This document shows positions 1 through 63,667 of a stretch of 64,000 bases of DNA, piece by piece. Origin of the DNA: Octopus vulgaris. Lineage: Eukaryota. The position numbers were made by a program, and so were the translations under genes. The notes under the pieces were generated by a model. That model was not told where the DNA came from and ran no database searches. It was given only the letters and a program-made list of their open reading frames with translations. The first letter of the stretch is position 1. Every line of letters begins with the position of its first letter. Where the stretch lies: the NCBI GenBank assembly GCA_951406725.2, contig OX597835.1:35278001-35342000 (forward strand). The letters run 5' to 3'.

Positions 1-233
1 AATGTTGTAAATATCCTTTGTCAGAGATTTTTATATTTTTATATTTCAATTGTCATCATCATCATTGTCAGCACCTTAATTATTGTTGCTAGTGGTGATG
101 GTGGTGGCAATAGAACTTTTAACCCTAAATAAGATAATTTTCCTGCTATCTTCGTCTTGATCACCTTTAGTATTGTTGTTGTTGTTAGTGGTCATGGTCG
201 TAGCAGTGGAAGTAATACCTCTAAGTATTATTA

Positions 234-2561
234 TTATTGCTTATTTAGCTTGGGTTCGAATTTATCAATAAAATTCTTTTCTCTGATTTTCCTCTCGATT
301 TCACTTGGGCTGTGTAATTTGTAGAATGGAAATATTATATATATTTTCCGACCACATGTTGCTAGGTGGTTACTCAAAGGTATCTGACGGACCTCTGGGT
401 CTCTAATCTGTTGCCGGTGTACACGTGAGCGTTCTAATAGTGCGTTTCCCGTCTGACCTACATATATTTCTTCACAATTTGGGCATTTGATGCAGTAAAT
501 TAAATTTCTGCTTTTGCAGTTCATATTCGCGTTTGTGAATATTTTCCCGGTTTTTGTGTTTATATATTGGCCGGTATGTATGAATTAGCATGTGCCACAT
601 CGGCTATCATTGCATTTAGATACCGTGAATGTTTGGTCTTTGTTGCTGAGGTCAAATTTTGCCTTTGTTAGTAATGTTTTCAAGTTTTTAGGCTGTCTTT
701 TACTAAGCACCATAGCTCGATCCTTGATTATGTCTTTTAATTCATTACTTTGGGCAATGATTGGTAGGTTTGCTTTGGCAATGTTGAAGATATTCTGGTG
801 ACATGGGTTGTGTGTCACTATGAATGATATGACTTGTTCTTGTTTTCCTCTTCCTTGGGTTGTCCTAAGTTGTTGTATAGGTATTTTTATAGCCCGCTGT
901 ATGCCATTTTCTATAAGTAGAGATGGGTATTTTTGTTTGAGCAAAAATTCTCTTAGTTCTATTAGGCGTTTGTTCCTGATATTTGCATCTTCTACAATAG
1001 TACAAATTCTTCTGGCTAGGCAGTATGGGATGTTACGTTTTGTATGTGGTGGATGGCACGACTTAAAATTTAGGTATTGATGTGTGTCTGTGTGTTTATA
1101 GTATATATCTGTGGTGATGGTGGTGTCTTTTTTAATTACCATTATATCCAGGAATGGTAATTTGGTACTACTCATCTCCTTTGTAAATTTGAGAGATGGG
1201 TGTAGGTTGTTCAGGAGGATATTGAACTCTTCCAGAGTATTTAGAGATTCTGTCCAGATTATGAAACAGTCGTCTAGGTATCTCTTCCATGCCTTTTCAA
1301 TATACTTTCTAAATCCAGTGCCATAGTTTACCTCCACCTCTTGGTAGAGTTGTTCTTCTAAGTATCCCATTACAGAGTTGGCGTAAACGGGAGCAAACCT
1401 CGTTCCCATCGCCGTGCCTCTAATTTGGATGTAATTCTTTCCATTGAAGAAGAATGTGTTATTTTCTAGAATAAGTTTGACTGTGTCTAATATAAATGGC
1501 ACTGTGAATCTGCTGGGAATCACTTCTCTATGTTTTTCTAACCAGTATTTAATCGCCTTTATTCCTAAATCGTGTGGAATATTGGTGTAGAGGCTTACCA
1601 CATCAAAACTTAGTAAAACTGAATTTGTTTCTGTTGTTTTGGGAAGATGGGACAGGAAGTCGATGTCATCCCTGATGAAACTTGGTATGTAAGTACATAG
1701 TGGTTTCAAAACAATGTCAATAAAATTGCTTAGACGGTGTGTAGGGCATGCTGGACCAGCTATAATAGGTCTAAGTTTTAGGTCTTTTGGATGTAATAAT
1801 TTTATGTACTCACTTTCTTGTTCTTTTACTGCCTGTTGAATGTTTTTTGATTTGTGTATTTTTGGTAAGCCGTAGAAGTTGCTGGGTTTTGGTTCAAAAT
1901 TGGTGATGTAGTCTTTTTCATTATCCGTAAGTGAGTTGTGGTGTGTTGAAATCAGGTTGTTGATCTTTTTCATGATGTGGTGGTCTATATTTGCGGGTAT
2001 TTCACAATAGAAGGTTGTATCCTTCAGTTGGTCTTCAACCAAATCCTTATAGTATTCGGTATCCATAATCACAATTGCACCACCTTTATCTGCTTGTTTA
2101 ATTATTATTGTTTGATCGTTTTGTATACGTTTACATGCAGACATCTCTGATTTGCTAATGTTTGGCCTAACATTGGTATTGCGTCTAAGGGGAAATTTAG
2201 ACAGGATATCAATGTATTGGTCAAGGTAGTTATTTCTTCCTTTTGGTGGGGTGAAATTTGATTTATTCCTTACTAGGGATTCATCAATCTCATTACTTTT
2301 GTTAGCGAAGAATTCTACAAGTCGTAATTTTCGACAGAATTTTTGGATATCCTCCTTTAATTCTTGGTGGTTGGCTGTTGGTGTAGGTGTGAATTTCAGT
2401 CCTTTTGACAGAAGTTAGATTTCATCATTGTCAAGATCTCTTTTTGATAAATTAATTATTTTAGGATCTATACGTTCAGTTGTTTGGGGTATGTTTCCTC
2501 TTGGATTTTTTCTTTCTCCGGTGTTTGTTGTCCTGACGTAAAAAAATGGATTTTTTTCTGG
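234..2561 (-). pseudogene. Penelope-like reverse transcriptase + Cys-rich linker + GIY-YIG endonuclease; one reading frame with two in-frame TAA stops (2415-2417, 585-587)
   Basis: Motifs IINLS..LLSKGLKFTPTP, KQADKGGAIV, FYGLPKIHK, LRPIIAGP, FDVVSLYTNIP, GTAMGTRFAP, RYLDDCF, LPFLDI, CNDSRCGTC, NLIYCIKCPNCEEIYVGQTG. ORFs 585..2144 and 234..524 are in the same frame. Confidence 0.95.
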
Positions 2562-3314
2562 TTATGATTTATATTCCTGTTGATGTTTGCTTGATGAATT
2601 TTGCGTTTTGGTTGTGGTACTTTACTTGGTTTCGTTATGTTTTCTGTCTTGTTTTTGGTATTATGTATGCTACTTTTCAATTTCTTGTTAGCATTGTTTT
2701 TAACCACCTGGAGAAATGATCTGGGTTTACTTCTAGATCTAGATCGGTTTTTTGTCCAGTTTCTTGTGGGTAATCTCTGTTGAGGTCTTGAAAATGATCT
2801 CCTGTTATTTCTACTGCTAATGGTCTGTTCAAAACAATATCTATTTTGTTTGTGCTTTTTGTTCATGTTGTGTGCATTAGGGTGTTTGCATACAAAATGG
2901 GAAGAGTTCTTACCGTAGTTCGTCTTCGATTCGTGGTGAAACGGGTGTTCATGTTGCCACGTGTTCTGGTGTATGTTGCGTTGGTGAGGTTGTCCACTTT
3001 TAATGCTATTTCTCGGAGTTCTGGTGTCTTTACCGTAATTTGTAGCATATTTGTCGAGAAATAATTGTTTCCGCTGCCAAAACTTTCTTGATCTGCTTTC
3101 TTCTTTTGAGATATCTCTGATCCATAGTTCTCGCATTTTTTCTGCTATATTGCCGGTCGTTAGTTTGGATATTTCATCTCTGATTTGATCATCGATAGCT
3201 TCGTATTTGGCTTTGTAGCGGGATTGTTTAGACAGGGTAATGGAGATGTCGGTCCTGAATTTTATCAAACTAAGGTCCCATCGAAGTTTAGTTTCTTCCT
3301 CTGGTTCTCCTGCA
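2468..3314 (-). CDS. Basic N-terminal ORF of the Penelope-like element, open up to the inversion junction (5'-truncated)
   Basis: 266-aa K/R/N-rich ORF immediately upstream of and overlapping the RT frame; no stop between 3268 and the junction at 3314. Confidence 0.7.
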
Positions 3315-62559: not shown

Positions 62560-63142
62560 CTATTTCTTTACTACCCACAAGGGGCTAAAGACAGAGAGGA
62601 CAAACAAGGACAGACAGACGGATTAAGTCGATTATATCGACCCCAGTGCGTAACTGGTACTTATTTAATCGACCCCGAAAGGATGAAAGGCAAAGTCGAC
62701 CTCGGCGGAATTTGAACTCAGAACGTAACGGCAGACGAAATACCTATTTCTTTACTACCTACAAGGGGCTAAACACAGAGGGGACAAACAAGGACAGACA
62801 AATGGATTAAGTCGATTATATCGACCACACTGTGTAACAGGTAATTATTTATCGATCCCGAAAGGATGAAAGGCAAAGTCGACCTCGGCGGAATTTGAAG
62901 TCAGAACGTAACGGCAGACGAATACCTATTTCTTTACTAAGGGCTAAACACAGAGGGGACAAACAAGGATAGACAAAGGGATTAAGTCGATTACATCGAC
63001 CCCAGTGCGTAACTGGTACTTATTTAATCGACCCCGAAAGGATGAAAGGCAAAGTCGACCTCGGCGGAATTTGAACTCAGAACGTAGCGACAGACGAAAT
63101 ACTGCTGAGCATTTCGCCCGGCGTGCTAACGTTTCTGCCAGC
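62560..63142 (-). mobile_element. Tandem trimer of family-B SINE
   Basis: Three units of about 185 bp joined at gacgaa(a)tac|ctatttctttact. Confidence 0.9.
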
Positions 63143-63667
63143 TTTTATCAATTCAATAATGAAAAATAAAATTACACCATTTAGAAAAATTACATATTAT
63201 AGAAAGATTAAATATAAGATAAAACATATATTGAATTGATAAAAGGTGTTTTTTTCCTAATATATATACATACACACACATATATATATATATATATATA
63301 TATATATATATATATATATATATATATATATATATAAATATACATAAATAAATAAATATATATATATATATACATACATAAATAAATAAATGAATATATA
63401 TATATATATATATATATATTATATTTCGTGAAAATTGATTTAGTATTTATAAATTGAATTTTCCCCTGTAAGTTTGGAATAATATTCCCTCATATATATA
63501 TATATATATATATATATATATATATATATATATATATATATATATATATATATATATATATATATATATATATATATATATATATATATATATATATATA
63601 TATATATATATATATATATATATATATATATATATATATATATATATATATGTATATGTATGTAGTG

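Follow-up and report, generated by a model that had tools for sequence, protein, structure and literature searches.

The stretch of DNA studied here (the window) comprises 64,000 nucleotides (nt) of Octopus vulgaris, from position 35,278,001 to 35,342,000 of contig OX597835.1 (assembly GCA_951406725.2). It is rich in microsatellites, with 8 hammerhead ribozyme motifs identified by our descriptor within 64 kb, and it holds eight units (cases 1 to 8) in which pieces of an element stand head to head with inverted arms; the largest of them, case 1, is a coding Penelope-like element (PLE). The initial annotation had claimed inverted arms at these eight sites and all are present: those of case 1 are 100% identical, and for cases 2–8 the arm score was never equalled in 1000 shuffles per case. 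All comparisons between copies were made within the window, with at most two copies per family. Coordinates are given in Table 1.

Table 1. Inverted units, their parts and uninverted relatives in the window (positions within the 64,000 nt).
Feature	Position	Strand	Remarks
Case 1, left arm: end of the endonuclease (EN) and 3′ untranslated region (UTR)	1..426	−	Exits the window; outer end beyond it
Case 1, C-terminal GIY-YIG EN	234..584	−	Pfam GIY-YIG, E = 8.7e-7
Case 1, PLE-type reverse transcriptase (RT)	585..2414	−	DKG and YLDD motifs; Pfam RVT_1, E = 1.6e-6
Case 1, open reading frame (ORF) 1	2468..3314	−	About 148 codons lost at the 5′ side; match to 400-aa P0241
Case 1, inverted 5′-truncated copy	3315..4210	+	EN end, 3′ UTR, hammerhead; (TA)n from 4211
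Case 1, minimal type I hammerhead motif	4007..4041	+	U4C core variant; palindromic helix III
Case 2	12767..13152		Near-palindrome with 102 nt left extension; (TA)n both sides; no hammerhead
Second PLE, uninverted	13601..14966	+	GIY-YIG fragment and 3′ UTR, with a minimal hammerhead at 14836-14863; flanked on both sides by (TA)n
Case 3	18450..18541	+	91 nt; hammerhead motif from 18473, helix II damaged; (TA)n both sides
Solo uninverted relative of case 6	20340..20572	+	Hammerhead and full 46 nt extension
Case 4	21681..22362		Left inverted piece 21681-21803: 31 nt arm and 92 nt extension
Case 4, hammerhead of right piece	22253..22328	+	Piece with internal tandem duplication and 34 nt tail
Case 5	about 30527..30772		Left piece: hammerhead 3′ half (−, from 30588) and tail
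Case 6	41792..42050		Left piece (−): A9C-variant hammerhead starting at 41950; right piece (+) spanning 41961-42050
Solo uninverted relative of case 7	45077..45263	−	Whole hammerhead 45193-45243; full extension
Short solo relative of the second PLE	45835..45987	−	
Case 7	55438..55817		Left piece (−): hammerhead 3′ half; right piece (+) without core
Case 8	63143..63494		Junction near 63228; left end clipped at a short interspersed element (SINE)

Case 1 is an EN-bearing (EN+) PLE, as shown by its RT, its C-terminal GIY-YIG, its 5′ truncation, its inverted pseudo-long terminal repeat (pseudo-LTR) and the hammerhead predicted on its sense strand; its layout is the standard PLE arrangement. At E ≤ 1e-30 its RT matches 750 of 7458 candidate proteins, the best being 65% identical, and many of these relatives carry RT plus GIY-YIG; the Pfam RVT_1 match falls narrowly short of the curated cut-off. 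RT and GIY-YIG are separated by a CX4CxxC linker, and since a CX2-5CxxC linker before GIY-YIG is described for the Neptune and Nematis clades (PMC8557442), this motif points to one of these two as the probable clade. ORF1 aligns with the 400 residues of P0241 from residue 149–150 only, at the inversion junction, so the body of the element is truncated there on its 5′ side. The two arms (1-426 and 3315-3740) are identical over 426 nt, despite two stops in the RT–EN frame, one of them in frame at the boundary between linker and EN; this points to a template that was already defective when it was recently copied, or to conversion or polishing. The chance of finding no difference between the arms is 1.6e-7 at the point estimate of their age and 0.15 at its low bound. 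The hammerhead motif was matched by the descriptor in 8 of 500 local shuffles, and an Rfam search of it returned no hammerhead match.

The RT of case 1 lies in the −1 frame relative to ORF1, with a heptamer of T near 2540-2546, and on the minus strand of 2415-2546 the RT frame is open from this heptamer, near the end of ORF1. Among 31 relatives of 300–460 aa (taken from 79 hits), 26 carry the dipeptide FL within the final 45 residues, for about 12% expected, an excess that would agree with a conserved −1 frameshift; frameshifted ORF1 in PLEs is mentioned in a figure legend of PMC8557442.

Among the short units, a PLE origin is well supported for cases 6 and 7 by their solo uninverted relatives, their hammerheads and their one-sided extensions. 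The arms of case 6 (41793-41836 and 41961-42004) are identical at 42 of 44 positions, the right piece running on for a further 46 nt; the unit matches its solo relative in 169 of 192 and 108 of 128 aligned columns. Those of case 7 (55444-55487 and 55707-55752) agree at 41 of 46, its right piece being extended by about 65 nt. Taken alone, the motifs of both cases fail the descriptor; they align to relatives that pass it. In case 7 the gap falls precisely where the hammerhead core should lie, flanked by the two strands of helix I: comparing 55688-55712 with 45193-45262, about 50 nt (core plus helices II and III) are gone and the helix I strands adjoin. The RT could have jumped across a cleaved or folded ribozyme, or the core could have been deleted later.

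The outer ends of these units are unequal. The initial annotation had described two inverted 3′ ends both facing outward; the arms are as it said, and the ends are not co-terminal in cases 2, 4, 5, 6 and 7, in which one arm extends past the other by 102, 92, at most 148, 46 and about 65 nt, respectively. It follows, as one arm runs further out, that the units are larger than first delimited (in cases 2, 4 and 5, see Table 1), and the arm lengths of 33 and 34 nt given for cases 4 and 5, which counted flanking TA in, become 31 and 30 nt. Most ends do lie in TA repeats, with the exception of the left end of case 8, which adjoins a SINE. Second copies confirm the one-sided extension in the families of cases 2/8, 6 and 7, and it is this recurrence that identifies the extension as element sequence; in the window, cases 4 and 5 occur once each. 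No consistent rule was found across the cases as to which piece is longer.

For cases 3, 4 and 5 a PLE origin is likely. Case 3 has nearly co-terminal arms (18450-18463 and 18526-18539) of 11 perfect positions, or 13 of 14 identical, around a whole motif with a damaged helix II; none of 500 shuffles gave the motif with the helix II requirement dropped, and Rfam gave no hammerhead match for it. In case 4 the arms (21773-21803 and 22332-22362) are identical at 31 of 31 positions, the inverted piece begins 3–6 nt past the hammerhead cleavage site, and the hammerhead reaches 17.9 bits with Rfam Hammerhead_1 (E = 0.061, below gathering). The body of case 4 contains a tandem duplication (21801-22174) of about 170–200 nt, 73% identical. 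The arms of case 5 (30527-30556 and 30595-30624) match at 30 of 30 positions, and the extension, on the right inverted piece, is the longest of all; the hammerhead 3′ half, also found in 13 of 500 shuffles, is weak alone. A second hammerhead candidate in this unit, at 30688, fails helix I and was not counted. The unit lies about 95 nt beyond the likely splice acceptor of an HMX3-like homeobox exon (about 29731-30427, minus strand), the protein of which is 98% identical to the Octopus vulgaris HMX3-B-like reference.

The initial annotation had described its elements as looking like unrelated MITEs; judging from sequence, cases 2 and 8 are members of a single family, having in common the arm sequence and the one-sided extension, with different junctions. 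In case 2 the arms (12869-13005 and 13019-13152; 137 and 134 nt) are identical at 131 of 137 positions on either side of a 13 nt spacer. In case 8 they overlap by just 19–20 nt (63143-63161 and 63225-63244, 19 of 20 identical), and the right piece continues through an expanded TA tract into the extension (63420-63488), up to about 63490. It is their architecture that suggests a PLE origin for these two, the least secure assignment of the eight; their pieces may lie entirely downstream of the hammerhead. A hammerhead-like 7-mer in case 2 was rejected, as it points inward and has no helices. An AT-rich stub between TA tracts at 47261-47410 (or, more narrowly, 47261-47394), itself between the two halves of a SINE, weakly resembles this family (6 of 500 shuffles), and for five other AT-rich stubs similarity to the family was not significant.

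Hammerheads were searched for with a type I descriptor, the first version of which detected 2 motifs, overlooking any mismatched at the helix II base; it was then loosened twice, both times after motifs were already known. The 8 motifs of the window compare with a mean of 0.09 (maximum 1) over 100 block shuffles, and no more than 200 nt downstream of 6 of them lies (TA)5, which holds for 22% of random positions. Two motifs belong to inverted units (cases 1 and 4) and the other six (at 10950, 14836, 20353, 45193, 45929 and 51857) to plain truncated pieces, so inversion is optional. Hammerheads had been announced in several units, which held for cases 1, 3 (helix II damaged) and 4 with whole motifs, for case 6 with a variant core and for cases 5 and 7 with 3′ halves, weak when taken singly; cases 2 and 8 have none. 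The outward polarity also stood: in every case with a motif, the hammerhead points to an outer end. The core variants observed are U4C, A6U and A9C. More solo hammerhead ends run into (TA)n at 10839-11019 (−) and 51857-52163 (+) by descriptor and at 54949-55093 (+) by eye, two of the three having long helix II inserts, and a motif at 36368-36403 passed earlier versions of the descriptor only.

The probable explanation of these units is, in our view, that they stem from PLEs, mainly through two-ended synthesis. Several EN-bearing PLE families would insert at (TA)n, where the RT–EN complex would open both strands of the tract and each 3′ end would prime reverse transcription on a pseudo-LTR RNA, the start site being distal for one end and more internal for the other; both cDNAs would usually abort early and be joined head to head by their truncated ends. 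Two element 3′ ends facing outward with a one-sided extension would thus result from two early-stopped cDNAs joined at their truncated ends; the two primings, their order and a join by microhomology are what we infer from these structures. Unit size, from 91 nt to more than 4 kb, would reflect only the stopping point of each cDNA, the short units being dead-on-arrival products rather than fixed-length families. For each family one would expect two preferred outer ends, not one.

The initial annotation had proposed two-ended priming or template switching by a Penelope-type RT for the whole series, and the comparison with self-priming bears on that part of its claim. If the inversion were instead made by fold-back on one molecule (the nascent cDNA, or antisense RNA as proposed for rotifer Penelope), a PLE origin would be kept with a single priming; junction palindromes and antisense self-priming are argued for in PMC3846280. 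The almost perfect hairpin of case 2, with its 13 nt spacer, would suit such a process, as would case 7, where the spacer and the extension are on the same piece. Fold-back on the element's own cDNA cannot, however, add outer sequence that is absent from the first piece. The spacer-less piece of case 6 contains 46 nt missing from its partner and was therefore not copied from the cDNA of the latter; this would also apply to cases 4 and 5, provided that their extensions come from the element. Long loops would also be needed for spacers of 38–528 nt. We consider self-priming or fold-back, of which the form on an antisense template would be a possible one, a rather improbable route, and two-ended priming would fit better than fold-back onto the element's own cDNA.

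Several observations weigh against a PLE origin with two-ended synthesis. Within the window, cases 2–8 share no sequence with case 1 and do not match any autonomous PLE ORF. No hammerhead and no coding trace was found in cases 2 and 8, and within the window cases 3, 4 and 5 are each represented once. The extensions, of 46–148 nt, exceed the published 30–40 nt. No hammerhead motif attains the Rfam gathering score (a window-wide scan at gathering returned 0), and an Rfam E-value scan of the window gave no hammerhead among 150 of 283 matches listed, which were microsatellite-driven miRNA and similar. As the descriptor was loosened once motifs were known, the excess over shuffles that it shows errs on the favourable side. 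The alignments at the junctions of cases 4, 6 and 8 overlap by 3 nt, and such overlaps are possible by chance. [quoted passage not shown]

It is in fact such a reading that these points, together with the 137 nt arms of case 2, could favour: some of the short cases (2/8, 3, 4 and 5) would be true DNA-transposon MITEs targeting TA microsatellites, case 8 deriving by internal deletion from an element with long TIRs such as case 2. DNA transposons targeting TA do exist (PMC4486113), and in the window itself a mariner remnant, with TIRs of 24 nt, occupies 8225-8780 (match to Mos1 transposase, E = 2.4e-23; the fragment 8296-8592 was detected via PDB, with no match in Pfam). We nevertheless hold this reading to be unlikely, given the hammerhead motifs within cases 3, 4 and 5, the one-sided extension common to cases 2 and 8 and the solo relatives of cases 6 and 7, which have no TIRs. 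MITEs have co-terminal TIRs; cases 2, 6 and 7 do not have them at both termini, and case 8 has lost its left end. The initial annotation had named constant length among copies as a sign of MITEs, and structure differs in all three of the families with a second copy (two have a solo uninverted relative and one another junction), a small number; such variable structure is unlike a fixed MITE. Its other sign, a TIR match to Tc1/mariner, was not found between the cases and the mariner remnant of the window. This remnant and an element at 31407-31817 served as TIR controls, and both are devoid of hammerheads, of bounding TA tracts and of any sequence in common with a case. The latter element has perfect TIRs of 29 nt and contains a few telomere-like hexamer repeats; candidate mariner remnants were also seen by eye in translations of 15070-15700 and 54150-54750, not confirmed by Pfam. 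For the inverted units themselves, any target-site duplication would be hidden in (TA)n, TA flanking both arms in cases 4 and 5.

The same TA tracts raise another possibility, namely that solo PLE ends were rearranged later in DNA, by replication template switching between self-complementary (TA)n, the 100% identity of the case 1 arms being due perhaps to conversion or assembly polishing. (TA)n does equal its own reverse complement, the case 1 arms are identical although the RT–EN frame has two stops, and the short arms stop at TA-alternating runs of 2, 3, 4, 4 and 3 nt (product of tail fractions 1e-4; p of about 0.05 by Fisher's method, by hand and post hoc); these runs and the 3-nt junction overlaps are only leads. 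We took a census of 48 islands of 60–1500 nt between TA tracts for end-anchored inverted repeats (40 shuffles each); it does not include cases 1, 5 and 8, and it missed case 7, the arm of which begins more than 6 nt from the edge. Six islands exceeded all shuffles: cases 2, 3, 4 and 6, an island at 32345 and an AT-rich island (29657-30513), positive through 18 AT-rich nt, which we treated as chance. None of the 11 SINE-bearing islands between TA tracts has such an inversion, which speaks against a general TA-driven rearrangement of DNA. Cases 4–6 would moreover demand three template switches or else a duplication combined with a deletion on one side. We thus find later rearrangement very improbable. 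The island at 32345-32582 has inverted co-terminal ends of about 15 nt beside (TA)n and no hammerhead; it passes the anchored census and fails an unanchored test (11 of 1000 shuffles), and could be a MITE or a PLE stub. A SINE-like repeat forms tandem arrays of 2 and 3 copies at 40645-41095 and 62557-63143.

In L1 twin priming, two primers at one target site yield an inverted 5′ piece; there the inverted piece comes from upstream and hardly overlaps, whereas in the octopus it is a second 3′ end, overlapping the first by 11 to more than 426 nt. The closest likeness is found among PLEs, described as typically forming inverted truncated copies, carrying a tail on one end and inserting at TA (PMC8557442, PMC3846280, PMC8969392). 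The C-terminal EN+ PLEs Neptune and Nematis share with our units the order RT then GIY-YIG, the cysteine linker, the 5′ truncation with an inverted truncated copy at the 5′ end, the one-sided extension, the hammerhead near the 3′ end, microsatellite targets and an optional frameshifted ORF1 (PMC8557442); the octopus pieces differ in that both are often shorter than 300 nt and in the longer extensions. The Penelope elements Pen2/Pen2a of the rotifer Adineta vaga likewise have head-to-head inverted pseudo-LTRs, a tail on one arm, solo pseudo-LTRs and microhomology at the 5′ junction (PMC3846280); their target duplications are of 8–10 bp, while any in the octopus would be hidden in (TA)n and a junction palindrome is clear only in case 2. 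As for the ribozymes, the minimal metazoan PLE hammerheads (PMC4209133) are also of type I, with a short palindromic helix III and an extra base after position 9, mostly single and in some instances in opposite-strand pairs 100–700 bp apart, pairs that were ascribed in Schistosoma to truncated PLEs; the octopus units usually keep the motif in one piece and show core variants. In vitro, the Poseidon PLE protein PAc of Anolis cuts and extends both strands at AT-rich DNA, with two RT start sites bounding the tail (PMC11167929); it starts at RNA sites without homology to the target, unlike the marginal TA-like runs at the octopus short arms.

Two other kinds of element are superficially close. TA-microsatellite MITEs such as MuTAnT (PMC4486113) are also short, with inverted ends and (TA)n flanks, and differ as non-autonomous DNA transposons with a transposase partner. 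Non-LTR retrozymes (10.64898/2026.07.22.740005) are non-coding PLE derivatives with a type I hammerhead, arranged in head-to-tail tandem arrays, whereas the octopus units are solo or head to head; we rejected a retrozyme reading, as the motifs are single and the tandem of case 4 lies upstream of its motif.

PLEs have been recorded in O. vulgaris (PMC13282606); our literature search, which covered few subscription journals, turned up no paper describing such stubs in the octopus and none describing twin priming by PLEs. Since publications on PLEs already describe inverted pseudo-LTRs, the tail on one side, insertion at TA and short pairs of hammerheads on opposite strands, we see in these units a new instance of a known architecture, and the miniaturised series, singled out at first as the unusual part, is a weak claim to novelty in view of the Schistosoma pairs. 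Most likely, several of the short inverted-repeat elements in TA microsatellites of this octopus DNA are heavily truncated two-ended PLE insertions that can be mistaken for DNA transposons. TIR/MITE finders, used in recent octopus annotation (PMC13282606), may thus label retroelement debris as DNA transposons. More speculatively, and with low confidence, a sizeable share of the TA-site “MITEs” that automatic tools would report for the octopus might be doubly aborted PLE insertions, whose two fixed outer ends and variable inner junctions would record two-ended priming genome-wide, with some cDNAs ending at the hammerhead cut. If some do end there, ribozyme-cleaved RNA would serve as a template in vivo, against which weighs that the one PLE examined in vitro did not need cleavage. 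PLE integration is not fully worked out, and PMC8557442 treats the origin of inverted pseudo-LTRs as unsettled; a genome this rich in PLE ends would offer thousands of junctions with which to separate two-ended priming from fold-back.

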